Translations under genes and position numbers: made by a program
The notes under the pieces: model-generated
Told to the model about the DNA's origin: nothing
What the model saw: the letters and a program-made list of their open reading frames with translations, nothing else
The model's database searches: none
Origin: Candidatus Kaiserbacteria bacterium
GTDB taxonomy: Bacteria; Patescibacteriota; Minisyncoccia; Phycocordibacterales; Phycocordibacteraceae
DNA length: 64,000 nt
Assembly (NCBI GenBank): GCA_027451665.1
Contig: DAIDIW010000001.1
Span: forward strand, 159,773-223,772
Direction: 5' to 3'
Shown here: in pieces, positions 11,201 to 32,305 of the stretch
Layout: each line of letters starts with the position of its first letter
How positions within the stretch are numbered: position 1 is the first letter of the stretch

Positions 11201-13052
11201 CTTCGATAATTCAAGCGACTACGATATCAACTTCATCGAAGGCGGAAGCGGTATAACGGTCTCGGATAACGAACGCATGGGCGGCGGCGCCGGAAACTTC
11301 ATCGTCCTTTTCAAGACGACGGGAGCAAACGTAACTGGTAACCAATCAACAAGCGCGATCACCTCTTCCGCGATCTTTGTGGGAGGCGGTACGAGCGACA
11401 CAACCATCAGCGGCAATACGCTAACAGGCGGAACGGCGACCGCTGTGAACATCAGCAACATTATCGGTGCGCCGAATACGGGGACGCTCGTAATCGCTCA
11501 TAACGATCTCTCCGGTAATGCGAAGGGTGTCTACGTTGCATCGAATGCGCTCGGGACGGGCGCGACGATAGACGTGCATGACAACAATCTCTCCGGTGAT
11601 ACCACTGCGGGTCTCGATAACGAAGCGTCTGCGTTCACAGTGGATGCTTCGCCTGATTGGTGGGGAGACTTGAGCGGGCCGGCAACCTCGACAAATCCGA
11701 CCGCGACCGGCTCAGCGATCGTGGGCACAGGCCCCGTGACCTATACGCCGTGGTACAAGGACGCCGCGATGACCACCTTGAAGTGGCCGGTGTATACGAG
11801 CGGAACCTCTGCGTCGACAACCATCGCAAGCGAGACGACGCTCACCGGAACGAGTACGACCGCAAGCAGCACGAGCGTTACGGTCACGATTCCGAGCGGC
11901 ACTACCGTAACGGGCAATAGCGCCTGGGACGGCACTATCATGGCGCCGACTGCGTCATCGACGACGCTCTCGCTCCCGGGCTCCACGGTTACCACGAGCG
12001 CGGCAATCACGGTCGGTTCGAGCCAATACGATCTGTACTTCAGCACGCCGGTGAAGCTCTTCTTCGCCGGTGAAGCCGGGAAAAGCGTCGGCTTCTATAA
12101 CGCGGCAGGAGTGTTCTCTCAGATTACGGAACACTGTGACGGTGTCGGCACGCCCACAGTTGGCGGTACGGCTCTGGCGACGACCTCGCCGGGTGAAGCG
12201 TGCAGCATTGCGGACGGTTCAGACCTCATCGTATGGACGACGCACTTCTCGACCTTCGTGACGTATACCTCGACACCGAACGCGCCGGTCATCTCGCCCG
12301 ACGGGGCGGTGTTCCACGGGACGGTGAACGTCACGATGGACGATACGGCAAGCAATGCCTACGTTCGATACACCACTGACGGCACCGATCCGACCTGTTC
12401 GACTGGTAGTGGATACGCGAATGGCCAGGTGCTGTCCTTCAGTGATGCCGTGACCCTGAAAGCCATTCGCTGCGAAACCGGCGGTACGGTGTACTCGACG
12501 ATCGCAAGCGCATCCTTCAGTCCTGCGGCAGGAGGGGGTTCGGGCGGCGGAGGTAGCAGCGGCGGCGGCGGTTCGGGCGGCGGAGGCGCAATCTCCCTGC
12601 CTCCCGTAACGCAGACGCAAACGTCTACGCAGAACCAGAACCAGAATCAGAATCAAAACCAGGGTGGAGAAGTGCTTGGTGCGGCTGCGTACAACTTCGC
12701 GCACAATCTTGCGCTTGGCGCACGCGGCACGGACGTCCTGCAGCTGCAGCAGTACCTTATTGCGGAAGGCTTCGACATTCCTGCGATTACGAAAGCGCAT
12801 GCGGCCTTCGGCTACTTCGGTAGCGAGACGAAGGCGGCGGTGATCGCCTTCCAGAAGGCAAACAAGATTGCTGCAACTGGTTATGTAGGACCGCTCACGC
12901 GCGCACTCCTCAACAAGGGCGTGATCAACACGACTCCCGAGCAGGCGACGAACCTGACGCAGTCTCAGGTGAACTCAATTCTCTCGGTCCTCGAGTCCTT
13001 CAATGTGGACCCTGCGACGCTCGCGAAGGTGAAAGCGGCGCTCGGACAATAG
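8214..13052 (+). CDS. Giant secreted surface protein: lamin-tail domain, parallel beta-helix repeats, chitobiase/Hex-C-like domain, Gly/Ser and Gln/Asn linkers, and a C-terminal PG_binding_1 domain
   Basis: Signal peptide (MNRF...TTMAASV). LTD motif GDVVINEF...WVELYN...NGWKLQD. Many NxTxxNxT beta-helix turns. (GGGS)n and (QN)n linkers. C-terminal LQLQQYL...FGYFGSETKAAVIAFQ peptidoglycan-binding fold. Confidence 0.8.
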   Translation: MNRFTLVPVSLSALLFVAGMFFPLTTMAASVSPGDVVINEFVSNNNPSSEWVELYNTTATAVDVNGWKLQDLTFTSDVPTGFATTTIDATDAFTVSGTATTSATTIPANGYLVVDVSGLNNGGDSISLWNATGTKYDAVTYGSVSGYTSDVAAPSYGYAAYRGPDGSSHWYLTATPTQGTENTPVINVSNTAGLLSALSSAPAGSTIMLADGTYTLSSTLEIPTALTLEGASEAGTVIDASSVSGYAVHTQASNVTIENLTVKGNPSSSSGSYGLKIEGTTPNSMPGSTSDGVRSTNITVQNVTVNDSYRTGVDLNGVNGVTLTNVTVTNVGKGTGIGLTDVDNATLSGITTSGNAWGGIAVYAYGKYYPGGSSDITLTGTNSIGETTLPLFGFRTEVDNSAYQITNVHVPSSLFPYAVGLPSYSAGATVAYVTNLSDAETVAASESTDSYITATADGSLYVVPGLSIQAAVNGAASGATVHIAAGTYTEQVSIDKNLTLMGEGTSTVIASPDTLSTSFSTASGARKAVVFATDANDVNITNLEVDGLGKGNANGSFMGIAFYNAGGSIASTTVTAVRETPFNGDQQGNAIYAYNDATSTALSITDNLVSDFQKNGITTNGSGLTATISGNTVTGQGATAVTAQNGIQVGFGAVGTVTGNTVNGIYCLYASVGDNCTLMPTATSTAADGAAAVLLYSPGSSATTTVNDNTITGSQYGIWTVGAYALDVEGNAITGTTTPGNNSTGVAIWSSDQSGATETSTTGTIAHNTITDAAYGVLVRDYTSGPPSPAVTIGTNTFTNVSAPLWTNTTLQFSDVAVEASWAGAATSTAETLGGTTYYYGVNAFPTITQGLAATAAGGTIHVGAGTYPESLSISQSVTLDGAQAGVDARTRDVGGAQDAQESILSVSSGNAITVHAGTVTIDGFKFEQSGTGAGITVLGGSGDVIKNSIFSSPNGYAADGIFSAATLDHNRVEDSKIGFEANSAAANDTTITANLFDNSSDYDINFIEGGSGITVSDNERMGGGAGNFIVLFKTTGANVTGNQSTSAITSSAIFVGGGTSDTTISGNTLTGGTATAVNISNIIGAPNTGTLVIAHNDLSGNAKGVYVASNALGTGATIDVHDNNLSGDTTAGLDNEASAFTVDASPDWWGDLSGPATSTNPTATGSAIVGTGPVTYTPWYKDAAMTTLKWPVYTSGTSASTTIASETTLTGTSTTASSTSVTVTIPSGTTVTGNSAWDGTIMAPTASSTTLSLPGSTVTTSAAITVGSSQYDLYFSTPVKLFFAGEAGKSVGFYNAAGVFSQITEHCDGVGTPTVGGTALATTSPGEACSIADGSDLIVWTTHFSTFVTYTSTPNAPVISPDGAVFHGTVNVTMDDTASNAYVRYTTDGTDPTCSTGSGYANGQVLSFSDAVTLKAIRCETGGTVYSTIASASFSPAAGGGSGGGGSSGGGGSGGGGAISLPPVTQTQTSTQNQNQNQNQNQGGEVLGAAAYNFAHNLALGARGTDVLQLQQYLIAEGFDIPAITKAHAAFGYFGSETKAAVIAFQKANKIAATGYVGPLTRALLNKGVINTTPEQATNLTQSQVNSILSVLESFNVDPATLAKVKAALGQ
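12625..12663 (+). repeat. In-frame hexanucleotide (CAGAAC-like) tandem repeat encoding (QN)n; an adjacent GGC/AGC-rich tract (12535..12594) encodes a (GGGS)n-like Gly/Ser linker
   Basis: Direct reading shows cagaaccagaaccagaatcagaatcaaaaccag. The units are multiples of 3, so length changes would not shift the frame. Confidence 0.5.
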
Positions 13053-13136: not shown

Positions 13137-14141
13137 ATGCGCTGGTGGCATCACCTCCACGACTACTTCCTCCCGCACGAGCGTAACGGTTTCCGGCCGC
13201 ACGTATTCGGGGTAACCTCGGTCGCAGCGCTAGCGATATTGATGCTCGTACTCGAGCTTGGGTTCCTCGCCCAGGTGAAGTTCGTGTTCCCGAACACGGA
13301 ATTTCTCGCCTCAGTGCTGCCAGGCGTTCTTGCCACTCTCACGAACGACGCGCGCGTGTCTGCCGGCGTCCCGGTGCTCACCCAGTCAGCGAAGCTTGAC
13401 GAAGCGGCGCGTCTTGCCGCTATCGATATGGCGGAGAAAGGGTATTTCGCGCATGTGTCTCCGGACGGGAAGACACCCTGGTACTGGCTCGGTCAGGTCG
13501 GGTATGCGTATTCCTACGCGGGCGAGAATCTCGCGGTGAACTTTTCCGATTCGCAAACGCTCCAGGCCGCGTGGATGGCCTCGCCTTCGCACGAGGCAAA
13601 CATCGTGAAGCCGCAATACACGCAGGTCGGCTTCGGCACGGCGGACGGGATGTATGAGGGGAAAGAGACAACATTTGTCGTCGAATTCTTCGCCACGCCG
13701 CTTGCTACGAGTACGAGGGAAGCAAAGCCCGCACCGATAGCCGCGACCGTCCCGGAAAAGGTGAAGCTCGCGTCTTCGACTGCCGCGATTCTCGGTGCCG
13801 CGACGCCGACGAGCGCAACGTCCGTTGTTACTTCTGTTCAAGCGCCGCGCGCGCCCGCAGCTGCACGCGCGGCACCGGTTTCCCATTGGACGGACTGGCT
13901 GCTCGCGTCGCCCTACTCGACGCTCGAATTCGTGCTCGCGCTGTTCTTTGCGATGATTGCAGGACTCGTTGCTGCGGCGATGGTGCGCCACTGGCGTCCG
14001 CCTCACCCGCATGTGGTGGTCGGCGGGGCGCTCCTGCTCGCGCTCTCTTTCGGGCTCCTCGCGCTAAATCCGATGCTCTCGGGACCGGTGCAAGTCTCCG
14101 CGGGCGTCCCGCATTTCGCGAGCGTACATGTGGCACCGTAG
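13137..14141 (+). CDS. CAP/SCP (YkwD-like) domain protein with N- and C-terminal TM segments
   Basis: CAP motifs (GYFAHVSPDG...GENLA...AAWMASPSHEANIV...VGFG). Ala/Thr/Pro-rich linker and a hydrophobic C-terminus. Confidence 0.7.
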   Translation: MRWWHHLHDYFLPHERNGFRPHVFGVTSVAALAILMLVLELGFLAQVKFVFPNTEFLASVLPGVLATLTNDARVSAGVPVLTQSAKLDEAARLAAIDMAEKGYFAHVSPDGKTPWYWLGQVGYAYSYAGENLAVNFSDSQTLQAAWMASPSHEANIVKPQYTQVGFGTADGMYEGKETTFVVEFFATPLATSTREAKPAPIAATVPEKVKLASSTAAILGAATPTSATSVVTSVQAPRAPAAARAAPVSHWTDWLLASPYSTLEFVLALFFAMIAGLVAAAMVRHWRPPHPHVVVGGALLLALSFGLLALNPMLSGPVQVSAGVPHFASVHVAP

Positions 14142-14277
14142 TCAGAAGGTCTGGTTCCGTTTGTGTCCAAGATTGCGGACTTCCGCGACACGTCTCCCGC
14201 ACTGAGTATCGCTAAAGACGATACGCATGACCCGCGTTCGAAGACGTGTGTAACGTGAGTCCGCTGCGGAAGTAAAT

Positions 14278-15354
14278 ATGGCGCTTGCGTCTCTCTTACC
14301 GTGGTGGCCATGCTATATTCACGATGTGATTCCGCTCGATAAGAACGAGAGCTATTGGCTCCTTGACGAGGAGCTCGTGCACGTAGCGAGTTCGTTCAAT
14401 CGGGACGTTTTCTCGCGCTACCCCTCCTACGACGATTTATTGGCGATGCTCGCGACCTATGCGGACATCCGGCAGGATTCGGTTCTCATGACGCCTGGTT
14501 CGGATGCGGCAATCGAGCTCATTGCGCGATCGTTTTCAGGAACTAAAGGCGTTCTACCCGTGCCGACATTCTATGGTTACGAGAAGATTCTTGATCGCGC
14601 AGGCGTTCAGACGATTCCAGTCTGCTACACCGAGGAAAGGGGATCCTTCCGATTTCCGTTCGAGGAGACAGTTAAGGCACTAGCAGATGCAAAAATACTG
14701 TTTCTCTGTCAGCCCAATAATCCGCTGGGTTCATCGATTCCCGAAGACCAGGTGAGAGAGCTCGTGCGTGAAGCGGGAAACCGAGGGGTTATGGTCGTAC
14801 TCGATGAGGCCTACTACGAGTTTTCCGGTCGCTCGATGGTGGCCGCTATGAAGGAGAATTCTCACCTCGTAATCACGCGTACGTTATCGAAAGGGTTCGG
14901 ACTATCGGGCGGCCGCATCGGTTATCTTCTCGCCGCTCCTGAGGTCGTCTCGAGATTCAAGACTCAGCTGCTCCCGTGGCCTATCGCGAACTTGAGCGTC
15001 TCGGCGGCGCGCGCCCTCCTCGGACGGGCAAGCGCGGTCAAGGCGCGTGTGCAGAAGGTCATCGAAGTTCGCGACACGTTCGCCGAAAGGCTTCGGACAC
15101 TGCCGACGTTCGTGGTCTATCCATCAGAGACAAACTTTCTACTCGTCAGGACCCCGGATGCAGATAGAGTAGTCGAAACCTGTACCGCAGCCGGAGTCCG
15201 TGTCGTCCCAGGGGAACCGATGAGTCGCTTTCCTGAAGCGCGTGCGCTCTTAAAAAACACGATTCGCATGGCAGTGCCTTCTCCTGAGGACACTACCATC
15301 GTCGAAGCAGCGTTCAGGGCGTCCTTCACAGAGGAGCCATTCACAAATTGCTAG
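14278..15354 (+). CDS. Class I/II PLP-dependent aminotransferase (HisC-like)
   Basis: LDEAYYEF and RTLSKGFGLSGGRIGY (PLP-Lys) motifs. About 350 aa. Confidence 0.7.
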   Translation: MALASLLPWWPCYIHDVIPLDKNESYWLLDEELVHVASSFNRDVFSRYPSYDDLLAMLATYADIRQDSVLMTPGSDAAIELIARSFSGTKGVLPVPTFYGYEKILDRAGVQTIPVCYTEERGSFRFPFEETVKALADAKILFLCQPNNPLGSSIPEDQVRELVREAGNRGVMVVLDEAYYEFSGRSMVAAMKENSHLVITRTLSKGFGLSGGRIGYLLAAPEVVSRFKTQLLPWPIANLSVSAARALLGRASAVKARVQKVIEVRDTFAERLRTLPTFVVYPSETNFLLVRTPDADRVVETCTAAGVRVVPGEPMSRFPEARALLKNTIRMAVPSPEDTTIVEAAFRASFTEEPFTNC

Positions 15355-16922
15355 AGTGTGGTAATGTCACGCGTATGCAATCGTCCGGCGTAAAGCCGAA
15401 GACGCGAACTCGGAGGGCTGCTCGCACGGCATTTTTCTATGCTGCACTCGAACACGCGGTTCCCGATCGTCAGAGTGCGGAGTGGATGAAGGTGCAGAGG
15501 ACTCATTTGACCTCTCTTTTTAAGAGAATGGCGGAAGGTGTTCCTGCCTATGGACGATTTTTGCGCCAGAACAAAATCAAGGTCGATCAGATTCACACGA
15601 TCGGTGATCTTGCGAATGTTCCGCTTACGAGTAAAAGCAACTATCTGCGCCAGAACGCGTTCCCAGATCTCTTCTGGGGCGGGAACCTAAAGAATTCGCA
15701 TATCCTTACCTCGACTTCGGGCTCAACAGGGAAGCCGACCTACTTCGCCCGTTCGCATGAGGTAGATGAGCACTCTTCGATAGTTCATGAGCTCATATTT
15801 CGTACAAGTTCGTTGAAACATAAGGAGTCAACGCTGGTCATCGTCTGCTTCGGCATGGGTGTATGGATCGGCGGCCTCATCACATACCAGGCGTTCGAAC
15901 TCATGAGTCGCCGAGGGTATCCGATCTCCATTCTCACACCGGGCATAAATAAGGCGGAGATCCTGAAGACATTGCGCGACCTGGCACCACATTATAAGCA
16001 GCTCATTCTTGCCGGTTATCCTCCGTTTCTCAAAGATGTGATTGATGAAGCGGTCGAGAGCGGTATTTCCTTCGACAAACACCGCGTCATGCTTCTTTTC
16101 GCTGCAGAAGCCTTTACGGAGAATTTTCGCGACCACGTGCTCGAGCGTGCCAACGTGCAAAATTCGCTTACGGATGCGGTGAACATTTATGGAAGTGCTG
16201 ATATTGGAACCATGGCCTTCGAGACGCCACTCTCCATTCTTGCACGTCGTCTCGCACTCAAGAACGAGAAACTCTTCGCGGAGCTTTTCCGGGGCACTAC
16301 CAAGACACCGACGCTGGCACAATATCTTCCGCAGTTTGTCTCGTTTGAGGCACCGAATGGCGAGATTCTTGTCTCCGGCGATAGTGCTCTACCGCTCATG
16401 CGATACTCCATCGGGGATCATGGGGGCGTCTACTCTTTTGCTGAGCTCTCTGAACGTTTCAAAACGCACGGCATAGATCTCAAGAGGGAAGCTCGCGCTG
16501 CAGGGATCGGTCCGCATATTCGCGAACTGCCCTTCGTTTATGTCTACGAACGCCTCGATCTCTCCACGACACTCTATGGACTGCAGATCTATCCCGAGAC
16601 GATTCGTGAAGTCCTGCTTGATAAGCGGTTCAACGAAGTACTTACTGGTAAGCTCTCACTCATAACAAAGTTTGATGAGGAGCAGAATCAATATCTGGAG
16701 ATAAACCTAGAGCTCAAACCGCATAAAGAGGCGGGAAAGGTTATCGCATCCGAAATCTCGACTGAGATTGTACGGAACCTGCGTGAAAAGAATTCTGAGT
16801 TCCATGAACTCTCAGACTTTCTCGGCAAGCGGTCTGAACCGCGCTTGGTCTTCTGGAAGTATGAAGACCCCCTCTACTTTAAACCGGGTATCAAGCAGGC
16901 TTGGGTAGTACGACCCTCGTAG
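15348..16922 (+). CDS. PaaK-like adenylate-forming enzyme (phenylacetate-CoA ligase / CapK / F390-synthetase family)
   Basis: TSGSTGKPT AMP-binding P-loop, and an N-terminal region colinear with PaaK (…NVPLTSKSNYLRQNAFP…). The true start is probably an internal Met (about 15375). Confidence 0.7.
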   Translation: MLECGNVTRMQSSGVKPKTRTRRAARTAFFYAALEHAVPDRQSAEWMKVQRTHLTSLFKRMAEGVPAYGRFLRQNKIKVDQIHTIGDLANVPLTSKSNYLRQNAFPDLFWGGNLKNSHILTSTSGSTGKPTYFARSHEVDEHSSIVHELIFRTSSLKHKESTLVIVCFGMGVWIGGLITYQAFELMSRRGYPISILTPGINKAEILKTLRDLAPHYKQLILAGYPPFLKDVIDEAVESGISFDKHRVMLLFAAEAFTENFRDHVLERANVQNSLTDAVNIYGSADIGTMAFETPLSILARRLALKNEKLFAELFRGTTKTPTLAQYLPQFVSFEAPNGEILVSGDSALPLMRYSIGDHGGVYSFAELSERFKTHGIDLKREARAAGIGPHIRELPFVYVYERLDLSTTLYGLQIYPETIREVLLDKRFNEVLTGKLSLITKFDEEQNQYLEINLELKPHKEAGKVIASEISTEIVRNLREKNSEFHELSDFLGKRSEPRLVFWKYEDPLYFKPGIKQAWVVRPS

Positions 16923-16946
16923 ACTCACGCGTGGTACACTTTCTCC

Positions 16947-17972
16947 ATGTCAGCGGTAACGCTGGAATCTTTTGAGAAATCTTTCCCAGAGCAGGGGGCG
17001 CTCGAGTTGCAGATACGAGCACTTCTTACGGGCGCGATGCGCGCTCCGTCGACGCATAACAGCCAGCCGTGGCGGTTCCGGATTGTTGGGAATTCGGTTG
17101 AGGTGTTCCGTGACGAACGGGTCAAACTTCCGAATTCTGACAAGGATACGCAATATGCTCACGTAAGCATCGGGTTCCTGCTGCACCATATATACGTACT
17201 GGCGATGTATCTCGGTATGCAACCCGATATTTCTGTTGCGGGAGGAATGCCGCTCGCGACGGTTCGACTTTCTGCGGCGGGCAAATCGCGAGATACATCG
17301 ACGATGACGCTCGCGAACGCTCTTTTTGAACGTCGTAACCGACGCGGCGTTTTTACCGCTACCAAAATCCCAGACGATCTCCTGGCGCGTCTGGCCGCGG
17401 TCCAGTCCTTGCCTCCCGGTCTCCCTCCCGTCGTCCCGGCTGTGATCACAGATCAAACTAAAGCGGTTCGTATCGGCGAGCTTACGCTCAAAACTATGGA
17501 ACGCGTATACGAACGTACTGCTTTTCGTGCAGAAATGTCGCGCTGGATCGTTCCAACCGGCTCAGCGCGCAAGGACGGTATCCCAGGTTATTCGTTGAAT
17601 CTCCCGCGCCCTCTCTCCTGGCTCTTGCCGATGATGATCCGCTCGTTCAATATCGGTAAATTACCGGGTAAGGCGAGTGCTGCAGCACTTGCTTCTGCAC
17701 CAGCGATATTCGCGTTTGGTGCGGACAACGATCCGCGAGCGTGGCTTGCTATCGGCTTCACGTCCTCGCGTATTATTCTCGCACTGACTGCAGAGGGGTA
17801 CGATGCGTCTGTGTTTGTCGCGACTGCGGAATTGCCTGATATTCGCGAGGAGGTGACCAGGCTCTGCGGTCTAACAGAACCGTTGCGTTTTCTTTTTGCG
17901 GCAGGACAACTTGAAGGTGCTGCTGATTGGCAGACTCCACGGGTGCCATTAGAGGATAAGCTCATGCCATGA
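16947..17972 (+). CDS. Nitroreductase-superfamily protein, tandem-domain size (SagB/Acg-like)
   Basis: Canonical APSTHNSQPWRF motif. At 341 aa it is about twice a single nitroreductase domain. The stop overlaps the next start (ATGA). Confidence 0.65.
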   Translation: MSAVTLESFEKSFPEQGALELQIRALLTGAMRAPSTHNSQPWRFRIVGNSVEVFRDERVKLPNSDKDTQYAHVSIGFLLHHIYVLAMYLGMQPDISVAGGMPLATVRLSAAGKSRDTSTMTLANALFERRNRRGVFTATKIPDDLLARLAAVQSLPPGLPPVVPAVITDQTKAVRIGELTLKTMERVYERTAFRAEMSRWIVPTGSARKDGIPGYSLNLPRPLSWLLPMMIRSFNIGKLPGKASAAALASAPAIFAFGADNDPRAWLAIGFTSSRIILALTAEGYDASVFVATAELPDIREEVTRLCGLTEPLRFLFAAGQLEGAADWQTPRVPLEDKLMP

Positions 17973-19021
17973 CTGATTTCCAGGTTCAACTTCTCGACCC
18001 AACTTCTGCAGTGGATGCTGCAGAAATCACGCGGCTCCGCACAGAGGGGTATGACTTCATCGACTCGTACGATGAGCAGCGTGCTGAACTAGCCGAGATC
18101 CGCGATCCTGAAGCGGTAGGTGGGACGCCACGGCCTCTTTCAGAGGATCCGGGGGAGATGGTTGCGGTATTTCCGTGGCGGAAAGTGCTCGTACGGATTC
18201 TTGGAAAGGCAGCATATCGCGAGCTGCGCAATAATAGGAATAGGGATCTTCTCACGAAGAGCGAACAAGACCGTTTTGCGGCGGCGTGCATCGGTTTTGC
18301 CGGACTAAATGTGGGCAACCCCGGCGCCGTGTGCATCGCGCTTGAAGGAGGCGCTCGCTCCATGAAACTTGCCGACCTTGATACGCTTTCGGTCACGAAC
18401 CTGAATCGCTTTCGTGCAGGCTTGCCGGATCTCGGCGTGAACAAGGCGATGCTTACGGCGCGTCAAATTCTTGAGGTTGATCCCTACTATACGCTTGAGT
18501 TGCACGAGCATGGCATCATGCCAGACACAGTCGGTGATTTTCTCGGGGAGCCGAGGATCGATGTCCTTATCGAAGAGATGGATGCGCTCCCACTCAAGAT
18601 CGCTATTCGCGAGGCTGCTAAGAATAGGGGAATTCCGGTAGTCATGGTGACCGGTAACGGAGAAGGGATTCTGCTCGACGTTGAGCGATTTGACCAAGAT
18701 CCGGATCTTCCGATATTCAACGGACTCATGGAGGAACGCGTCATGACCGCGATTACGCATCCGTCCGGCCCACTCGCACCTCGCGAGAAGATTGCGCTCG
18801 CGCGCGACTTTATGGGTTCCCAGTACCTGGATCCTTGCCTTGTAGATTCATTCTCCAAATTCGGTTCCGAGCTCGTCGGTATTCCACAGCTCGCCGAGTC
18901 TTCCTTTATGCGCGGAGCGGCACTCTGCTACGCGGTGAAAGCCATAATACTTGATCGTCCTCTTTCGTCGGGGCGATATTCCTTCTCCTTTGCTAGAGGT
19001 CTTTTACCGTTTGTACAGTAA
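17969..19021 (+). CDS. E1/ThiF/MoeB-like Rossmann protein with a degenerate Gly loop
   Basis: ACIGFAGLNVGNPGAVCIALEGGARSMKLADLDTLSVTNLNRF aligns to the ThiF core (…VGAGGLGS…LxLVDxDxVExSNLNRQ). The DxD and NLNR motifs are retained, and there is an insertion in the GxGxxG loop. Confidence 0.5.
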   Translation: MTDFQVQLLDPTSAVDAAEITRLRTEGYDFIDSYDEQRAELAEIRDPEAVGGTPRPLSEDPGEMVAVFPWRKVLVRILGKAAYRELRNNRNRDLLTKSEQDRFAAACIGFAGLNVGNPGAVCIALEGGARSMKLADLDTLSVTNLNRFRAGLPDLGVNKAMLTARQILEVDPYYTLELHEHGIMPDTVGDFLGEPRIDVLIEEMDALPLKIAIREAAKNRGIPVVMVTGNGEGILLDVERFDQDPDLPIFNGLMEERVMTAITHPSGPLAPREKIALARDFMGSQYLDPCLVDSFSKFGSELVGIPQLAESSFMRGAALCYAVKAIILDRPLSSGRYSFSFARGLLPFVQ

Positions 19022-19030
19022 GTTGCATAT

Positions 19031-20599
19031 ATGCAATCGATCCTAAATCTTGATTTGCTTTGGGTCGGACTCGCTGTAGCGGGCGCGGGAACGCTAGGAT
19101 TCTCGATATATTTTCCGGATACAAAAAGTGCAACTTCTCGGATGTTTCTTCTTTTCACCTCGATTAGCATTTTCTGGAGTATCTCGAATTTTGCGAGCGC
19201 TCGGGTCGTCGATCCTAGACTTGCACTTTGGCTCATTCGTGCGGTGCTTTTCTTTGCGAGCTGGCATGCGTTCTCATTTTTCCTGCTTGCATATCAATTT
19301 CCAGATCGCGCCATGCGATTATCAAAAACGCTCTTTCTAGGGCTTCTTTCTTGGACGGCCGCGATATCGCTCGTGGTACTTACTCCAGTAGTATACGAAG
19401 CAGTTACTGCGATTTCTCCCGTCATCGAAACAAAGACCGGTCCAGGTATCATCCTCTTCGGACTCACTGTTTTTGGGTTCATAGGTACCGGCATATGGGT
19501 TCTCGCGCGCAAGTATTTCGATACTGAGGGGGAAGCACATCGACAGATTGAATTCGTATTGACAGGAATGTCGACAACGTTCTTTTTCCTCATCATCTTT
19601 GATTTTATTTTCCCCGCCTTCCTGAATAATCCAACCTTTGTTCCATTTGGTGGGTTATTCCTCCTTCCTTTCATTTTTGGTACCGCGCATGCGATTCTTC
19701 ATTATCGACTTTTTAATCCTCGCGTCGCATGGTTCGGGTTATTAACGTTCATGCTAGCGACTGCGACTTTCTTCGACATACTCCTTTCTGCAACGGTTTG
19801 GCTTGTTCTTTATCGTGTAGCAGAGTTGGTCCTCGTCCTAGTAGCTGGAATCTGGTTGATTCGAAGCATGGTACGGGAATTCGAACTGGAGGAGGAGCTG
19901 AAGGAAATTAACAAGCGACAGGAGGGCCTCATTCATTTCGTGGGACACGAAGTGAAGGGCTTCCTTACGAAGGCGGCTGGCGTATTCTCCATGCTCGACG
20001 AAGGCGATCTCGGCCCCTTACCGGAGAACATGAAGCCGTTTATCGATCGCGCGCTCGAGGATACCCGCCATGGCGTCACGAGTGTCTCGGATATATTGAA
20101 GGCATCGAACCTGAAGAAGGGAACCGTGAATTACACGAAAGTGCCGTTCGATTTGAAGGCCGCGGCTAAGGAATCCGTCGATCGTGCGAAGCAGAACGCA
20201 GAACAGAAGGGATTGAGGCTCTCCTTCACGGCAGACGAGGGCGATTTCACCCTAAGCGGAGATAGAGGAGAGGTCCTCGACCACGTGCTGCGCAACCTCG
20301 TGGACAATGCAATCAACTACACGCCATCGGGTTCGATAGACGTCTCACTCACGCATAAGGACGGCAGACTCGTCTTTGCGGTGAAGGACACCGGCGTCGG
20401 TATTACTGACGAGGATAAGAAGTACCTCTTTACCGAGGGCGGTCACGGCAAGGATTCGCAGAAGATAAACGTGAACTCCACCGGGTACGGCCTCTTTATC
20501 GCGAAGCAAGTCACCGAGGCGCATGGCGGTACGGTCGCGGCCTCTTCCGAAGGCCCCGGCACTGGCTCTATGTTCACCGCTTCTTTCCCTGAGGCGTAG
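19031..20599 (+). CDS. Membrane-embedded sensor histidine kinase (about 8 TM N-terminal domain plus HisKA/HATPase_c)
   Basis: H-box FVGHEVKGF, N-box RNLVDNAINYT, G1 DTGVGI, G2 GYGLFIAKQ. Markedly lower GC (about 40-48%) than the backbone. No adjacent response regulator. Confidence 0.8.
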   Translation: MQSILNLDLLWVGLAVAGAGTLGFSIYFPDTKSATSRMFLLFTSISIFWSISNFASARVVDPRLALWLIRAVLFFASWHAFSFFLLAYQFPDRAMRLSKTLFLGLLSWTAAISLVVLTPVVYEAVTAISPVIETKTGPGIILFGLTVFGFIGTGIWVLARKYFDTEGEAHRQIEFVLTGMSTTFFFLIIFDFIFPAFLNNPTFVPFGGLFLLPFIFGTAHAILHYRLFNPRVAWFGLLTFMLATATFFDILLSATVWLVLYRVAELVLVLVAGIWLIRSMVREFELEEELKEINKRQEGLIHFVGHEVKGFLTKAAGVFSMLDEGDLGPLPENMKPFIDRALEDTRHGVTSVSDILKASNLKKGTVNYTKVPFDLKAAAKESVDRAKQNAEQKGLRLSFTADEGDFTLSGDRGEVLDHVLRNLVDNAINYTPSGSIDVSLTHKDGRLVFAVKDTGVGITDEDKKYLFTEGGHGKDSQKINVNSTGYGLFIAKQVTEAHGGTVAASSEGPGTGSMFTASFPEA

Positions 20600-20749
20600 C
20601 GACCGCAGCATCGCTTTGGCCGGCTTCTTCCCAGGCGAGCCTGAACGCTTGCCGGACGACAGTCGCAAAATCTGCGCTCTGGCTCTAGGTGACCGCGCCG
20701 AAGGATCTACCGCGCACAGCGGAAGCATTTCATGCCCGTGCATAAAGAA

Positions 20750-20772
20750 GCCGCCGCCCGAATGGGCGGCGG
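20750..20772. terminator. Hairpin between the convergent histidine kinase and GNAT genes
   Basis: GCCGCCGCCC-GAAT-GGGCGGCGG, a 9-10 bp GC stem. The flanks are only modestly T-rich. Confidence 0.4.
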
Positions 20773-20776
20773 ATAC

Positions 20777-21430
20777 TCATTTACTCTCCTTCTTCAATCT
20801 CGCGAGCTGCTGCTTTGTCAGCTTCGGCAGCTTACCCGTCTCGAGATAGCAGTTCCAGATCGGCTCGAAGTCCCCAGGGAATACATCGAAGAGGATCTCG
20901 TCCACACGTTTCCCGCTATCCAGCTCCTGGCCACGCCTGCGACCAACGTATCGGTAGCCGCACGCGATGAGGTGGCCATGACTACGCTCGTTGAATGCCT
21001 TTATGCTCGAGTTCACCTTATAGAGACAGAGTTCGTGGAATGCGACGTGGAGAAGGAGCAGTTTCGCTTCCTTCCCATAGCCCTTCCCAAAGCAGTCCTT
21101 ATCCCAGATGAGCGTGCCGCTCGTCGCGGTGCTCTCCGGCTGGCGGATCTTGTGCAGGCCGGTATGGCCGATGTATCGATATCCAACAAGCTTGCTGCCT
21201 TCAAAGACGTGAAGAAGGATCGCGAAGACCACGTCGGTTCCAGCACGCTTGCGAGCTGCTAACCCATCGAACCACGCATACTCCTCTTCGATGGTGACCG
21301 GCGGCGTCATGAGCACGCCGCGGACGACGTCAGGATCGTTCACGCCTTGCATGAGTTCCCGGACGTATTCCCGTTGCATAGCGCCGAGCGAGATGTTCAC
21401 GCGGCCATTGTAGATAGGATAGTGCGACAT
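20777..21430 (-). CDS. GNAT family N-acetyltransferase
   Basis: GNAT core (…LLLLHVAFHE…YKVNSSIKAFNERSHGHLIACGY…). The start codon is uncertain (21430 or 21442). Confidence 0.65.
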   Translation of the reverse strand: MSHYPIYNGRVNISLGAMQREYVRELMQGVNDPDVVRGVLMTPPVTIEEEYAWFDGLAARKRAGTDVVFAILLHVFEGSKLVGYRYIGHTGLHKIRQPESTATSGTLIWDKDCFGKGYGKEAKLLLLHVAFHELCLYKVNSSIKAFNERSHGHLIACGYRYVGRRRGQELDSGKRVDEILFDVFPGDFEPIWNCYLETGKLPKLTKQQLARLKKESK

Positions 21431-21691
21431 AGGTATCTCCAAAGATCATGCTCTGCTCAAGAAACGAGAAGGAATCCCAGCTTCCGCAGAGCCGGGATGT
21501 TTCTTATCAGGAGGCGGGGGAGAAGAAATATCGCGGCTATGCGCAAACGAAGATGCCGAGGTCTGAGACCTGGATCGTCTTCGTCAGGCAATTACCGCGA
21601 TAGAAATGCATGCAATTACCTTACCTCTTGCACCGCATTTGTCAAATTTCAGATTGTAAGAACGCCGCGGCTTTGCTAGTCTCTTCAGTAC

Positions 21692-22125: not shown

Positions 22126-22215
22126 CATCTAAAAGCCCAGATAAAACCTGCGGTAGTGGCTGGTCTTGTGGGGATGCTATGCTTTGTGCAGGCGAAAGCC
22201 TTAATATTTAAGAAA

Positions 22216-22869
22216 ATGAACCGATTTTTATCGAGCCATCCCCGCGCGCTCGCCGCAGCGGTAGGCGTAGTCACGATCGTCTCGATGTTCGCGATGACGC
22301 CGGTCGCGCAGGCAAGTAGCCTCACCTCTTCGCAGGTGAACGCAATCATGACGCTTCTCCAGGCGTTTGGCGCGGATTCCGCGACCATTGCGAACGTGCA
22401 GGCAGCGCTCATGGGTACTTCATCCGGAACGACGGTACAGACTTCGACCTCAACGCCGTCGTATAACGGACCCGGTAACGCGTCGAGCTGCATGTCCATT
22501 TCCGGTACCCTCTCGGTCGGGTCCCGCGGAGAGGACGTTACGAGGCTGCAGCAATTCCTCGCGCAAAATAAGAGCATCTACCCTCAAGGATTGGTAACCG
22601 GCTATTACGGCACCGAGACGGAGGATGCGGTGCGCCGCTATCAGGCGCTGCACGGCATTGTTGCAACCGGCACGCCTTCCACTACGGGTTACGGCATAGT
22701 CGGCCCGTCTACCCGCGGTGAGATGGAGCACGAGATGGAATCCGAGTGCAACAGTGGCGATCACAGCAATAGCACCGACAATGCATCCTCGACGCCTTCG
22801 CAGGAAGGTGAGCATGGACAGGCTACGACAACATCGTCAGACAGCAGTTCTGGTTCAAAGGACAACTAA
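22216..22869 (+). CDS. Secreted protein with a PG_binding_1 domain and an acidic Ser/Thr-rich tail
   Basis: The track ORF start overlaps tRNA-Asp, so the internal Met (MNRF…signal peptide…AQASS) was chosen. GSRGEDVTRLQQFLAQN…YYGTETEDAVRRYQ is PG-binding-like. Confidence 0.6.
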   Translation: MNRFLSSHPRALAAAVGVVTIVSMFAMTPVAQASSLTSSQVNAIMTLLQAFGADSATIANVQAALMGTSSGTTVQTSTSTPSYNGPGNASSCMSISGTLSVGSRGEDVTRLQQFLAQNKSIYPQGLVTGYYGTETEDAVRRYQALHGIVATGTPSTTGYGIVGPSTRGEMEHEMESECNSGDHSNSTDNASSTPSQEGEHGQATTTSSDSSSGSKDN

Positions 22870-22940
22870 CGAACGGTATTGTCATGCGAATCCACCGCGC
22901 GGCGCCAGAGGCGCCGCGCGGTGGCGTTATAGTGAAAAAG

Positions 22941-24140
22941 ATGCGTTCTCTGCGCGCGCGAGCATTCGATCTCCTCAAAAAGAACCGGCGTACGACCGAC
23001 GGACACCTCTATACCGTCCCGTCGCCCGATACCTATCCGTACCAATGGCTCTGGGATTCGTGTTTTCATGCGATCGTGCTCGCGAAATTTGATCCTGAAG
23101 CGGCGAAAGCCGAGCTCTTCGCGCTCGCGTCCCGGCAGTTCGATGACGGTATGATCCCGCATATCCTCTATTGGAGTCCGGGTACGCTCCATCGTTACGA
23201 CTGGGGAACGCCGGGGACGAGTGCGCTTACACAGCCGCCGCTGCTCGCGTATGCCGCGTGGGAGACCTACAAGGCGACCGCGGACGCAGCGTTTCTGAGA
23301 GAGCTGTATCCGCATTTGCTGCGGTTCTATCGGTATCTGATTGAAAAGCGCGACCCGCGCGACCACCACCTTGTGGGCATCATAAACCCGGACGAATCCG
23401 GCGAAGATAATAGCCCGCGCTTTGACGACGTGCTTCACGTGCCCGCGGATATCACGCTCGCCGACCATCTCGCGCGTCGGCTCGAGCTCGTGGATGCGAA
23501 CCGAACCTGCCATTTCGACGCAGAGCTCTGCATGAAGCGGCACTTCTGGGTGAAGGACGTTCCGTTCCAGGCCGTTCTTATCGAGAATCTGCGCACGCTG
23601 GGGCACATCGCGTCCGTCATCGAGGACGCGGACGGCGAGCATTTTGCGAGCGTAAATAGCGGTCTCGTGACCGATGCGGTGCGCGAGAGGCTCTTCGATC
23701 GGGATGCCGGCGTATTCTGGAGCGCGGCCGGCAATGAGTACCGACCGCTCAAGGTCGCTACGTGGGCGCACTTTGCGCCGCTCTTCACAGACCTATATTC
23801 GCCTCCAGAAGCGAAGCGGGTCGTGGAGATGCTCTTCGATGAGCGCACCTTCTGGTCGCCCTATGGCGTACGTACGGTCTCGAAGCAGGAAACCTCATAC
23901 CGACCGGACGGCTACTGGCGCGGTTCCGTGTGGATGGCACCGCACTGGTTCATCTACAAGGGACTCATGCGCTATGGATTCATGAACGAAGCGCAGCGCA
24001 TACGAGATGCTTCCGCTCGTTTGCTCGAACAGGAAGGATTCCGCGAGTATTTCGATCCCGAGACGGGCAGGGGATATGGTGCGCACGACTTCACCTGGGG
24101 CGCACTGGTCACTGACATGGTCGAGGACGACCAGACTTAG
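22941..24140 (+). CDS. (alpha/alpha)6-barrel glycoside hydrolase, GH63/MGH-like
   Basis: YPYQWLWDSCFHAI motif typical of GH63, trehalase and mannosylglycerate-hydrolase-like enzymes. Internal start chosen. Confidence 0.65.
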   Translation: MRSLRARAFDLLKKNRRTTDGHLYTVPSPDTYPYQWLWDSCFHAIVLAKFDPEAAKAELFALASRQFDDGMIPHILYWSPGTLHRYDWGTPGTSALTQPPLLAYAAWETYKATADAAFLRELYPHLLRFYRYLIEKRDPRDHHLVGIINPDESGEDNSPRFDDVLHVPADITLADHLARRLELVDANRTCHFDAELCMKRHFWVKDVPFQAVLIENLRTLGHIASVIEDADGEHFASVNSGLVTDAVRERLFDRDAGVFWSAAGNEYRPLKVATWAHFAPLFTDLYSPPEAKRVVEMLFDERTFWSPYGVRTVSKQETSYRPDGYWRGSVWMAPHWFIYKGLMRYGFMNEAQRIRDASARLLEQEGFREYFDPETGRGYGAHDFTWGALVTDMVEDDQT

Positions 24141-24169
24141 CCGGGCCGAGCTGCCGTATACTGAATACC

Positions 24170-25102
24170 GTGACCTACGAAGAACTCCGACAAGCGCTCG
24201 CACTCGAGCCAGAGATAGTACAAGGAACCGTACCGCACGTGGCGCGTTACATCGTGGGTGGTATGGGCGGTTCCGCGCTGCCGCCAGAGGCGCTTCGTTT
24301 CCTCGACCTCGCATTCCCGATCTCCGTGCATCGCGATTACGATCTGCCGGAGGACGCGCCGGAGGATACGCTCTATATCGCGATCTCCCATTCGGGGAAC
24401 ACCGCAGAGACGCTTTCTTTCGCGAAGGCGGCGCATGAGCGAGGACTCCCGCTTGCCGTCATTACCTCCGGCGGCGCGCTCGAGGCTTTCGCGCGAGAGC
24501 ATACGGTACCGCTTGTCCTCGTCCCGCGCGGCATGCAACCGAGAAGCGCGCTCTTCTATCAGCTCGGGGCGCTCCTGCGGCTCGTCGGTCGTTCAGATCT
24601 CGCCGCGGATCTCCGCAAGGCTGATTTCCGGGAATCAGACGTAGAGGGGGAGGCTCAAAGGCTTGCCGCGGCGCTCGCGGATACGCTTCCGCACTTCTAC
24701 GCGTCGCGCAAGAATGCGTTCCTCGCCTGGGTGGCGAAGATCCATACGAACGAGGGGGCGAAGATGCCGGCGTATGCGAATGCCTTTTCGGAGTTGAATC
24801 ACAATGAGATGCAATCATTCGATCGTATGGCGCCTCCTGGCATCGCGTCCGCAGTACGTTTCGTGCTCTTGCGGGATCCGCAGGAGGACGCGCGCGTCGC
24901 GCGCCGTATGGAGGTCTTCAAGGATGTGTTGCATGATCGCGAACGGACGGTGCATGAGCTCGCGCTTTGGGGGGAGACGCGCGCGACGCAGCTCGCGCGC
25001 GGATGGTTCGTGCTCGAGCGCTACGAGCGTCTCCTCGCACAGGCACGCGGAGTGGATCCAGACAGCGTGCCGCTCATCGAGGATTTTAAAAAACGGTTAT
25101 GA
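24170..25102 (+). CDS. SIS-domain bifunctional phosphoglucose/phosphomannose isomerase-like protein
   Basis: GGMGGSA…ISHSGNTAET SIS motifs. About 310 aa. Confidence 0.65.
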   Translation: MTYEELRQALALEPEIVQGTVPHVARYIVGGMGGSALPPEALRFLDLAFPISVHRDYDLPEDAPEDTLYIAISHSGNTAETLSFAKAAHERGLPLAVITSGGALEAFAREHTVPLVLVPRGMQPRSALFYQLGALLRLVGRSDLAADLRKADFRESDVEGEAQRLAAALADTLPHFYASRKNAFLAWVAKIHTNEGAKMPAYANAFSELNHNEMQSFDRMAPPGIASAVRFVLLRDPQEDARVARRMEVFKDVLHDRERTVHELALWGETRATQLARGWFVLERYERLLAQARGVDPDSVPLIEDFKKRL

Positions 25103-25905
25103 AGCTTGTCTTCGACATCGGCGGTACGAGCATGCGTCTCGCGCGAGTCGATGGCGCTGCACTGCGAGACGTGAAGAAGGCGGCGACGCCGCCGGAAGGG
25201 GAGCACGGATTCGAGACCCTCTGCGAGCTCATCGAGCGATTGGCACCGGACGAGGGCATCGAGGCGATCGTGGGCGGTCTTGCGGGGGTCCTTCATGAGG
25301 ATGGCACGCTCTTGGGTTCGCCGAATTTGCCTGGGTGGAGCGGATTCCCGCTTGCACGTCGTCTCCAGGAGCGTTTCCACATTCCCGTCATAATCCATAA
25401 TGACAGCCTGCTCGCCGCGCTCGGCGAGGCACGGTATGGCGCTGGCCGCGCCCACCGTGTCGTTGCTCATTTGCGTATCGGTACCGGAGTCGGCGGCGCG
25501 CGCATCGTTCAAGGCAAGCTCGAGGCACACGCGAAGGGATTCGAACCGGGGCATCAGGTAATCGACCTCTCACGCGGCGCGACCCTCGAATCGCTCGTGG
25601 GCGGCGCATCGCTCGCGCGGAAGTATGGCGCGTCGCCTTCGACCCTCACGCGCGAGGCATATAGGGAAGCCACGCGCGCACTTTCCATCGGAGTGTGGAA
25701 TCTGATCGTGCATTGGTCGCCGGATGTCGTCGTCCTTGGCGGTTCGCTCATGAACGAGGAAACAGCCTATCGGCTCGCAGACGTGCGTATCGAGACGGAG
25801 AAGTTGCGCACCGTGCTCGCGCAGCTTCCCGAGATACGCGTCGGTACACTCGGGGACGACGCGGGGCTTTACGGCGCGGTGGCGCTCCTCGCAGAAAACG
25901 TTTGA
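25099..25905 (+). CDS. ROK family sugar kinase (glucokinase-like)
   Basis: DIGGT N-terminus and an NDSLLAALGE…GTGVGG ROK pattern. ATGA overlap with the upstream gene. Confidence 0.75.
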   Translation: MKLVFDIGGTSMRLARVDGAALRDVKKAATPPEGEHGFETLCELIERLAPDEGIEAIVGGLAGVLHEDGTLLGSPNLPGWSGFPLARRLQERFHIPVIIHNDSLLAALGEARYGAGRAHRVVAHLRIGTGVGGARIVQGKLEAHAKGFEPGHQVIDLSRGATLESLVGGASLARKYGASPSTLTREAYREATRALSIGVWNLIVHWSPDVVVLGGSLMNEETAYRLADVRIETEKLRTVLAQLPEIRVGTLGDDAGLYGAVALLAENV

Positions 25906-25953
25906 AAAGCGGAGCTGTTTCGCGTACTATCGGTAGCGCATTATCGTATTGCC

Positions 25954-26639: not shown

Positions 26640-26808
26640 AGACATGAGCCCCGCGTTTGCGCGGGGCTCATGCTATAGTCAGCCCGGTCCTCTACGAAAG
26701 TTCCTCAGGACCGGCCCGCTCGGTAGGGTAAGTCATTCGGCGTCCGTCACGTCGAGCCAGCTTCGGTTGCACTCCCCGCCCTACCGAGCGGGTTTTGCTA
26801 TACTCGCT
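26640..26808 (+). other. Highly structured ~165-nt region between the tRNA and prfB (three consecutive perfect hairpins). Candidate leader, ncRNA or terminator array
   Basis: Hairpin 1: CATGAGCCCCGCG-TTTG-CGCGGGGCTCATG. Hairpin 2: CCGGTCCT-(15 nt)-AGGACCGG. Hairpin 3: a 13-bp stem CCGCTCGGTAGGG…CCCTACCGAGCGG enclosing an inner C(UUCG)G tetraloop hairpin. TGCTATAGT and TGCTATACT extended -10-like boxes lie at 26669 and 26795. Confidence 0.4.
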
Positions 26809-26814
26809 TGCATC

Positions 26815-31207: not shown

Positions 31208-31212
31208 TAGGG

Positions 31213-32272: not shown

Positions 32273-32305
32273 AATTACTGATGGATTACGACGCCGAAAG
32301 GTGAC

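Follow-up and report, generated by a model that had tools for sequence, protein, structure and literature searches.

The 64,000-nucleotide stretch analysed here (the window) comes from contig DAIDIW010000001.1 of a Candidatus Kaiserbacteria bacterium and carries, between positions 14278 and 20599, five open reading frames (ORFs) on one strand with no junction wider than 24 nt in the ORF listing. The first gene (14278..15354, + strand) encodes, by its PF00155 profile match, a HisC-family class I/II pyridoxal phosphate (PLP) aminotransferase. It is followed on the same strand by the gene of a PaaK-family adenylate-forming ligase of about 515 aa (15375..16922; profile and fold match), by that of a double-length nitroreductase-superfamily protein, which we call the flavin-dependent oxidase (FDO) and propose as the C-alpha/C-beta desaturase (16947..17972; NF047509 match), by that of a ThiF-type ATP-dependent adenylating cyclase of the TrzS/OxzB/TyzB kind (17969..19021; NF005901 match), and by that of a membrane sensor histidine kinase made up of a HisKA_7TM sensor region, a dimerisation/His region and a HATPase_c domain (19031..20599; PF16927 and PF02518). 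We treat the last four as core genes 1 to 4 and the aminotransferase as accessory.

The ligase and FDO genes are 24 nt apart, the FDO and ThiF genes share a 4-nt ATGA overlap, and 9 nt separate the ThiF and kinase genes. The junction of the aminotransferase and ligase genes is a 7-nt overlap if counted from TTG 15348, with which the ligase ORF opens, and a 20-nt gap if counted from ATG 15375, from which the relatives (about 515 aa) align. The NCBI gene call for the ligase (P0121) has 464 aa and is about 50 residues shorter than the relatives; the alignments suggest that ATG 15375 is probably the true start and that the annotated start of P0121 lies too far downstream. A GNAT gene of the Acetyltransf_3 type (20777-21442) converges on the operon, and between it and the kinase gene the terminator scan found a GC-rich hairpin (20751..20772, GCCGCCGCCCGAATGGGCGGCGG) whose stem of 9 GC pairs closes a loop of 4 nt and which has a T-rich tail on the minus strand; it is likely a transcription terminator. 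The tRNA scan placed tRNA-Met at 21692 and tRNA-Asp at 22051, downstream of the operon. This layout had been outlined in an earlier note on the same DNA, and the coordinates and junctions of the five tightly packed co-directional genes, the ATGA overlap between the nitroreductase and E1-like genes, the motifs TSGSTGKPT and LADLD...NLNR, the convergent GNAT gene, the hairpin and the two tRNA genes were all found as described there. Profile searches also upheld its family guesses (aminotransferase, PaaK-like ligase, double-length nitroreductase-superfamily protein, ThiF, and a kinase with HisKA_7TM and HATPase_c domains).

The last four genes recur together in Patescibacteria, the Candidate Phyla Radiation (CPR). 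One genome per GTDB species was scanned with two stringent peptide patterns; 240 relatives were confirmed and 80 loci kept, which with the window made up the analysis set of 81 sequences that was studied by tblastn and ORF clustering. All 80 kept loci belong to Patescibacteria-type metagenome-assembled genomes; the label 'Gammaproteobacteria', borne by some SRP co-assembly bins among the loci, is in our opinion a mislabel. Complete genomes with the module can also be named, e.g. CP011209 (locus L071) and AP024681 (L058). The ThiF family was found in 77 of the 81 sequences, the ligase and the FDO in 72 each, and the kinase in 68. At least 57 of the 80 loci have all four core genes, which point the same way in 55 of these 57 and span a median of 5.4 kb; the loci with fewer than four genes are mostly contig ends or misses by our crude ORF caller. 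With P, F, T and H standing for ligase, FDO, ThiF and kinase, the five main gene orders were PFTH (18), FTPH (16), PTFH (11), TPFH (6) and TFPH (2). The catalytic motifs are kept in all four core proteins, down to 14-32% identity. The set ligase-FDO-ThiF-kinase is thus a conserved, lineage-wide four-gene module of Patescibacteria, of which the window holds one copy plus an accessory aminotransferase. The view of the earlier note that the five genes form a unit stands for the ligase, FDO, ThiF and kinase core; it does not for the aminotransferase, found in only 10 of the 81 sequences. The GNAT gene, found in only 2, is not core either. The note's broader proposal of a pathway for an amino-acid-derived small molecule is favoured by the recurrence of the four-gene set in the relatives.

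The genes around the module, read off the sequences without hidden Markov models (HMMs), are often grpE-dnaK-dnaJ on the upstream side (e.g. L017, L027, L036, L065 and L079) and trpS-aspS on the downstream side (L008, L010, L027 and L035). Such a housekeeping neighbourhood argues for old, vertical inheritance of the module in CPR. The gene of tryptophanyl-tRNA synthetase also adjoins modules with a ScyB-like tryptophan dehydrogenase, a conjunction that may or may not be significant.

NF005901, the model of the Rv1355c family, matched the window ThiF with 3.7e-83 and 280 bits over model positions 11-333 of 722, which is the entire ThiF half; the score is below the cut-off of 476 bits, which was set for the 722-aa fusion. 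Other ThiF/MoeB/TcdA models gave at most 46 bits (TcdA 31 bits), PF00899 matched with 5.9e-10, and the ThiF/MoeB equivalog models, at 17-44 bits, fell below their cut-offs of 152-647. The AlphaFold2 (AF2) model of the protein (pLDDT 82.4) has the fold of AclA (9egb), PaaA, ThiF, MoeB, TcdA and MccB among the structures of the PDB, where those of OxzB and TrzS are lacking; a sequence comparison with the PDB ranked TcdA proteins first (E 7e-7). The closest homologues, at 63-78% identity, are all from Patescibacteria (Paceibacteria, Kaiserbacteria, Minisyncoccota and others). The Gly loop AGLNVGN, D136/D138, NLNR147, K159 and D205, the Asp of the adenylation motif, are at least 93% conserved among 75 family members with identities down to 32%. 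Because the Gly loop and the catalytic residues are conserved across the family, the protein is not a 'degenerate' E1-like enzyme, as it had been called in the earlier note; its unusual Gly loop is a family signature. By these matches it belongs to the OxzB/TyzB/TrzS clade, and its adenylation site is intact. The structure closest to the ThiF model is that of AclA of Tenacibaculum discolor (PDB 9egb-9egd; E 6e-11, TM 0.78 on target), a ThiF-type protein whose structure 'in complex with substrate' was released recently. Our literature search found no paper on its function; it may be a relevant small-molecule ThiF.

The FDO, whose gene overlaps that of ThiF by the four nucleotides mentioned above and which belongs to the nitroreductase superfamily, matched the Acg-family FMN oxidoreductase model NF047509 with 4.5e-50 over positions 2-318 of 319 (171 bits, cut-off 199), and more weakly two models of ThiF-FDO fusions, PRK07877 (Rv1355c) and PRK14851, in their C-terminal halves. 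Its PDB match is Acg (2ymv, 1.2e-8). The residues A33-P-S35..N38.Q40-P-W42 (APSxHNxQPW), R129 and R133 are at least 93% conserved among 67 members. The FDOs of five further loci were typed along with that of the window. In loci with the order ThiF-FDO (L063, L066 and L080) the best match was the FDO half of TrzS/Rv1355c (143-171 bits, positions 374-713 of 722), whereas in those with the order FDO-ThiF (L011, L027 and the window) it was the Acg-family model (171-190 bits), with weaker matches to TrzS. Both types belong to the monomeric double-length FDO subgroup of PMC10404671. Judged from these matches, the ThiF and FDO of the ThiF-FDO loci correspond to a split TrzS.

The window ThiF and FDO are, as predicted from their families, the enzyme pair known from the oxazolone synthetases OxzB, TyzB/TyzC and TrzS (= Rv1355c). 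TrzS turns N-acyl-tryptophan into an oxazolone through a cyclisation that depends on ATP and a desaturation that depends on O2 (PMC12856293). OxzB of Pseudoalteromonas (de Rond et al., bioRxiv 10.1101/2020.06.11.147165) has this chemistry as well, and so do the separate M. tuberculosis proteins TyzB (ThiF) and TyzC (FDO) (PMC10404671). N-acyl dehydrotyrosines of Planctomycetota come from clusters of ThiF, nitroreductase and N-acyl-amino-acid synthase (PMC12479983), and of the ThiF-like enzymes treated in a review from 2025, OxzB is the sole one listed with a small-molecule substrate (PMC12596934). The earlier note had recognised no described pathway in the gene set. This is correct for the set as a whole, but the combination of ThiF with a nitroreductase-superfamily oxidase had already been described, namely as the oxazolone-synthetase pair. 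Our literature search found no paper in which this gene set is tied to Patescibacteria, a PaaK-type ligase or a kinase, and in the papers on cultivated or enriched CPR bacteria that it returned these genes are unmentioned.

The ligase had no Pfam match. TIGR02155 (PaaK) matched it with 3.8e-19 and 68.5 bits, and FlxY weakly (5e-8). The score is far below the TIGR02155 cut-off of 646, yet the protein has the PaaK/ANL fold and the catalytic motifs (P-loop and the A10 lysine, K516), thus it is a member of the family and not an orthologue of PaaK. In agreement with this classification outside the PaaK equivalog, there are no paa catabolic genes in the window region or in the relatives. Foldseek comparison of the AF2 model (pLDDT 85.7) with the PDB gave PaaK1/PaaK2 and BT_0428 (E 1e-23 to 1e-21; PaaK1/PaaK2 1e-23) as the best matches, then NatL2 (6siy), AjiA1 (6wuq) and ClxA (9s45) with E of about 1e-16. 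Conservation among 68 members is at least 93% for S124-G-S-x-G-x-P130, Y281-G282, R352-Y353...D357 and K516. The subfamily comprises 508 cluster representatives at E<=1e-30, and the closest homologues are all patescibacterial. The ligases of the CPR modules fall in two groups, with about 45-76% and about 30-40% identity to the window ligase, respectively, and this grouping tracks the position relative to ThiF. Together with the two FDO subtypes, this split suggests that there are at least two lineages of the module, possibly with different substrates. NatL2, AjiA1 and ClxA are PaaK-family enzymes that form ester or amide bonds straight from the acyl-adenylate, without coenzyme A (CoA) (PMC7204872, PMC9400959, PMC12519233), and we infer for the window ligase that it adenylates a deaminated acid and couples it to an amino acid.

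The kinase matched PF16927 (HisKA_7TM) with 2.8e-8 and PF02518 (HATPase_c) with 5.4e-23. It has about 7-9 hydrophobic segments in residues 4-285, joined by short loops and no large one. Among 65 members, the H, N, G1, F and G2 boxes (H306, N422/N426, D453-x-G-x-G457, F467 and G485-x-G487) reach at least 93% conservation. A functional link of the kinase to the module, supposed in the earlier note, is borne out by the occurrence of the family in 68 of the 81 sequences, mostly as the last gene of the set.

The acid for the ligase could be provided by the accessory enzymes. The aminotransferase matches PF00155 with 6e-43 and has the PLP-Lys motif LSKGFGLSGGRIGY; its best NCBIfam model, hisC, gave 207 bits, which is under the cut-off of 276. 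Its gene adjoins the ligase gene in the window and in 9 relatives, co-directionally in L001-L004 and L008 and on the opposite strand in L035, L045, L046 and L075. An ELFV dehydrogenase, whose best model is the tryptophan dehydrogenase ScyB (290 bits), is encoded in 26 loci, and an aromatic ammonia-lyase in 6; the best model of the latter is the flexirubin tyrosine ammonia-lyase (TAL) FlxA, with 575 bits against 452 for HutH. The three enzymes are mutually exclusive: 26 loci had only the dehydrogenase, 10 only the aminotransferase, 6 only the TAL-like lyase, and none had two together. The dehydrogenase gene lies directly upstream of the ligase gene in 19 of its 26 loci, and the aminotransferase gene does so in 10 of 10. 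By family, each of the three is predicted to take the alpha-amino group off an amino acid, presumably an aromatic one. Natural fusions occur among the ligase relatives: a ScyB-like dehydrogenase with the ligase (P0258), the ligase with a TrzS-type ThiF (P0263) and ThiF with the ligase (P0335). In a fourth, P0361 (1242 aa), dehydrogenase, ligase and ThiF form a single chain, with an FDO gene upstream and the genes of an alpha/beta hydrolase and then a HisKA_7TM kinase downstream. Fusion proteins of this kind are encoded at L081 (6001-9729) and L082 (819-4547).

Most likely the module makes an amino-acid-derived small molecule of the oxazolone type, which it perhaps also senses. We put the probability of the biosynthetic core of this reading (deamination, ligation, and formation of an oxazolone or dehydro-N-acyl amino acid by ThiF and FDO) at roughly 55%. 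In the first step the aminotransferase would strip the alpha-amino group from an aromatic amino acid to give an aryl-2-oxo acid (arylpyruvate); in other loci the ScyB-like dehydrogenase would give the same type of acid, and the TAL-like lyase an arylacrylic acid. This step is suggested by the identity of the families, their mutual exclusivity and the fusions. In the second step the PaaK-family ligase would adenylate the acid and pass it on to an amino acid, at the amino group, possibly through a CoA thioester intermediate, and so provide the N-acyl amino acid without a synthase. In the third step ThiF would adenylate the alpha-carboxylate, the amide oxygen would close the oxazol-5-one ring, and the FDO would desaturate the C-alpha/C-beta bond; here the proposal draws on the homology to TrzS, OxzB and TyzB/TyzC, the chemistry of which has been demonstrated. 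Finally, the adjoining membrane kinase may sense the oxazolone, the N-acyl-dehydroamino acid formed by its hydrolysis, or a cue that controls the synthesis. The conserved adjacency of the kinase gene is what points to this last step, and we hold the signalling part as a tentative proposal, clearly less certain than the biosynthetic core.

Comparison with the known systems shows both what is shared and what differs. The nearest is the TrzS/TrzA tryptazolone pathway of M. tuberculosis and its relatives (PMC12856293): the Rv1355c model is the best sequence match of the window ThiF, an FDO partner is present, and in some CPR loci the ThiF-FDO gene order mirrors the domain order of TrzS, with a full-length match of the FDO to the TrzS half. 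The window ThiF has D205 in its adenylation motif, the kind of residue whose loss abolishes the cyclase activity of TrzS (PMC12856293); in TrzS the D217A exchange blocks cyclisation and R540A blocks desaturation. However, TrzS is one fused protein, whereas the window has two genes in the order FDO-ThiF and an FDO that is nearer to the Acg model. The window module lacks a TrzA-type N-acyltransferase and has instead a PaaK-family ligase, a seven-transmembrane (7TM) kinase and a deaminating enzyme, and it is found in a CPR bacterium, while the hosts of TrzS are mycolic-acid actinobacteria.

In the TyzA/TyzB/TyzC system of M. tuberculosis (PMC10404671), ThiF and a single-domain, monomeric FDO of about 340-370 aa are encoded, as in the window, by separate neighbouring genes of one operon. 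Tyz and OxzA/OxzB of Pseudoalteromonas rubra (bioRxiv 10.1101/2020.06.11.147165) act on aromatic amino acids by ATP-dependent cyclisation and flavin-dependent desaturation. They differ from the CPR module in the absence of a linked kinase and in the acyl donor, a fatty acyl-CoA used by a FeeM/LuxI-like acyltransferase, instead of which the window has an ANL/PaaK-type ligase that probably acts on a deaminated aromatic amino acid. The N-acyl dehydrotyrosine clusters (stieleriacines, thalassotalic and kyonggic acids; NasY, ThiF and nitroreductase, PMC12479983) have ThiF and FDO in an operon-like arrangement and, as in 8 CPR loci, an occasional accessory methyltransferase. The CPR end product may, like theirs, be an open dehydro-N-acyl amino acid and not an oxazolone. 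These clusters are marked by NasY, which is absent from the CPR module, and their hosts are Planctomycetota and Pseudomonadota. NatL2, AjiA1 and ClxA of benzoxazole biosynthesis (PMC7204872, PMC9400959, PMC12519233) share the PaaK-type ANL fold and set a precedent for CoA-free coupling of an aryl-adenylate, but have only 14-18% identity to the window ligase, use aminohydroxybenzoate substrates, stand in another gene context and are less near to the model than PaaK1/2.

Several points weigh against the proposed pathway. Everything beyond family membership we infer from sequence. About half of the loci have no accessory deaminating enzyme, thus the donor may be a scavenged acid or another compound, and the acids expected from the lyase, on the one hand, and from the dehydrogenase or aminotransferase, on the other, are chemically different. 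The characterised FDOs use O2, and many CPR bacteria live in anoxic water. The window FDO scores better on the Acg-family model (171 bits, still under the cut-off of 199) than on the FDO half of TrzS (42 bits). Regarding the kinase, adjacency fails to separate sensing of the product from ordinary regulation. The absence of a response regulator, already remarked on in the earlier note, holds for the entire 64-kb window when searched with an HMM built from receiver domains, and a single-domain receiver is encoded near the module in only 18 of the 80 loci. It is also possible, in view of the structural match to PaaK1/2 and BT_0428, which are true CoA ligases, that the ligase makes only a CoA thioester.

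This last point leads to a CoA-dependent route with an unlinked acyltransferase, which in its full form would be the classical oxazolone pathway: the PaaK-like enzyme would supply acyl-CoA, an unlinked synthase would make the amide, and ThiF and FDO would act as in Tyz, Trz and Oxz. We consider it unlikely, though it is the strongest of the competing explanations. Besides the CoA ligases at the top of the structural matches, it has in its favour that all characterised oxazolone-type pathways use a synthase of N-acyl amino acids that depends on acyl-CoA (PMC12856293, PMC10404671, PMC12479983). In the window no such synthase adjoins the ThiF/FDO pair, the convergent GNAT gene being of another type and present in only 2 relatives. 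None of the five genes encodes an N-acyl-amino-acid synthase (OxzA/TyzA/TrzA/NasY or FeeM-like), and no synthase-like family is recurrent in the 80 loci with their 10-kb flanks, the rest of the genomes being unsearched. Moreover, the ligase-ThiF and ThiF-ligase fusions argue for consecutive steps with no enzyme between them, and CoA-independent amide ligases exist in the PaaK family.

A somewhat less probable explanation is that the genes serve the salvage or catabolism of aromatic amino acids or aryl acids: the aminotransferase or dehydrogenase and an aryl-CoA ligase would convert the two into each other, as happens in anaerobes, ThiF and FDO would have some other function in redox chemistry or activation, and the kinase would regulate uptake. 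The accessory enzymes are typical of amino-acid catabolism or anabolism, and the ligase resembles phenylacetate-CoA ligases. The module, however, contains neither an indolepyruvate or 2-oxoacid:ferredoxin oxidoreductase nor paa genes, and such a role would leave unexplained both the invariant pairing with a TrzS-type ThiF and FDO and the ligase-ThiF fusions.

Improbable, too, and more so than salvage, is modification of a macromolecule, in which ThiF would adenylate the C-terminus of a peptide or protein, in the manner of MccB, PaaA and IndF, or, like TcdA, a tRNA nucleoside, and the FDO would be an azoline or SagB-type dehydrogenase. Most characterised ThiF-like enzymes do act on peptides, proteins or tRNA (PMC12596934), TcdA is the best PDB match by sequence, and PaaA, MccB and TcdA are among the fold matches. 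But the window ThiF has 280 bits on the TrzS model versus 31 on that of TcdA, and the components that would be expected were not found. No YcaO is encoded by the five genes or by the recurrent neighbour families. Gaps of at most 24 nt leave no space for a precursor gene within the module, and upstream of 14278 there are only an unconserved 31-aa ORF with a GTG start (14163-14258) and overlapping antisense ORFs. A small ORF for a ThiS/MoaD-type beta-grasp carrier was seen neither in the module nor as a recurrent small ORF family in the loci. The suggestion of the earlier note that the operon resembles those of ribosomally synthesised and post-translationally modified peptides is thus not upheld, and the machinery of thiazole/oxazole-modified microcins, looked for as YcaO, precursor and carrier protein, was rejected.

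That the genes, juxtaposed by chance, entered at a tRNA gene as an island by horizontal transfer or as a module for stress or defence, we regard as very improbable, since in spite of an operon GC content 5-6 points under that of the flanks and the tRNA genes downstream, six relatives share the tRNA order and downstream genes, the GC content of the module follows that of the host over 0.25-0.60, PADLOC gave generic domain matches only, and the four-gene set is kept across the phylum.

The GC content is 0.531 in the operon, 0.579 in the window and about 0.59 in the flanks, and the lowest 500-nt value, 0.454, is in the region encoding the membrane part of the kinase. The operon is near the 5th percentile of 6.3-kb segments, above the minimum; the 6.3-kb stretch with the lowest value in the window (0.518) is at about 31201-37500. 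The GC drop noticed earlier is therefore real, but it is modest (0.531 against about 0.59) and not one of '40-50% versus 63%'. In the relatives the module tracks the GC content of its host genome (flanks from 0.25 to 0.60) and is on average only 0.02 below the flanks. After the kinase gene, tRNA-Met, tRNA-Asp, tRNA-Thr(ggt) and tRNA-Thr(cgt) follow in the same order in L005, L006 and L009; tRNA-Met and tRNA-Asp are present in L002 and L003, and tRNA-Met in L007. The downstream genes at 26644-29519 have 70-86% identity in L005, L006 and L009. With the tRNA order and the downstream genes conserved and the GC content tracking the host, insertion of the operon as an island at a tRNA site, to which the earlier note had pointed, is rejected. 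The spacer between tRNA-Asp and tRNA-Thr(ggt), 22127-25953, contains the genes of a PG_binding_1 protein and of an MGH1/GH63-like glycoside hydrolase plus two further ORFs, all four without homologue in the 80 loci. In L005, L006 and L009 the same spacer measures about 270 nt, 2.3 kb and 1.7 kb, respectively. It looks like this spacer, rather than the operon, is the variable insertion site at the tRNA cluster.

A defence role, also considered in the note, found no backing in PADLOC-DB 2.0: the E1 (1.8e-6) and HATPase (4e-8) matches are generic and at domain level, the other four proteins had none, and no model of a defence system was matched; a defence system was rejected on this basis. The two palindromes upstream of the first gene, to which attention had been drawn, both exist, but their frequency is at chance level (3 occurrences of the pattern in the window, where 1.5 are expected; a count of 3 was reached in 16 of 100 shuffles). 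The leader folds like shuffled sequences (z = -0.14), and Rfam gave no match at the leader upstream of 14278; an operator or a riboswitch was rejected on these three grounds.

The pathway proposed here, amide formation by the ligase followed by ThiF/FDO chemistry, can be taken one step further. The module might be an ancient, phylum-wide signalling circuit, in which an oxazolone or dehydro-N-acyl amino acid derived from an aromatic amino acid is made via the ligase route, unlike in any known oxazolone pathway, and detected by the 7TM receptor kinase of the same operon, in an autoinducer-like or host-directed manner; the odds are against this extended version, and we offer it as a possibility. 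A similar gene arrangement is found in the CqsA/CqsS and LuxM/LuxN systems of Vibrio, where the synthase gene adjoins the gene of a multi-pass membrane histidine kinase without a large extracytoplasmic domain, and where CqsA belongs to the PLP aminotransferase family. The resemblance is one of arrangement, as the proteins are not homologous.

Patescibacteria make up a large share of bacterial diversity; they have genomes of less than 1 Mb without most biosynthetic pathways and live attached to host cells. To our knowledge, very little is known of how they sense hosts or each other. A module that is kept over many CPR classes, whose catalytic sites are intact, whose gene order is permuted and whose genes have repeatedly fused, must matter for their lifestyle. 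What appears to be new, as far as the genes tell, is the presence of the known ThiF/FDO pair in a new pathway architecture, with a new substrate route, in a new lineage and with a conserved coupling to a receptor kinase. Should the proposal hold, a fourth and very different lineage would have oxazolone or dehydro-N-acyl-amino-acid chemistry, and there would be a new route to its N-acyl amino acid precursor, in which an ATP-dependent PaaK-type ligase replaces the acyl-CoA N-acyltransferase. The link to a receptor kinase would give a testable handle on the role of oxazolones, which is still obscure even in M. tuberculosis, and there would be a concrete candidate for a signalling molecule of CPR, open to a test with four or five genes in E. 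coli.

Some loci contain further genes, inside the module or next to it. An M19 membrane dipeptidase is an occasional extra (L015, 11108-12043; L024, 12516-13457); as a member of the dehydropeptidase family it would fit a dehydroamino-acid product. Other occasional extras are class I S-adenosylmethionine (SAM) methyltransferases (L056, 8498-9217; L069, 13500-14252) and alpha/beta hydrolases (L026, 13385-14269). A family of uncharacterised 310-aa proteins (f27), whose GxGxG motif is methyltransferase-like, occurs in 6 loci (e.g. L047, 8453-9385), and TrmB-type regulators (family f11) in 8 (e.g. L004, 5756-6592).

Elsewhere in the window, a full-length tmRNA gene at 57253-57666 (- strand) was recognised by Rfam (97 bits, E 9.5e-37), having been missed by the whole-window ARAGORN scan. 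Upstream of the operon, 8193-13052 (+ strand) encodes a giant surface protein of 1619 aa, of a type common in CPR genomes. It carries a lamin-tail and an Fn3-associated domain, right-handed beta-helix repeats and, at the C-terminus, a peptidoglycan-binding domain, and the gene of a YkwD/CAP-family protein follows at 13137-14141.

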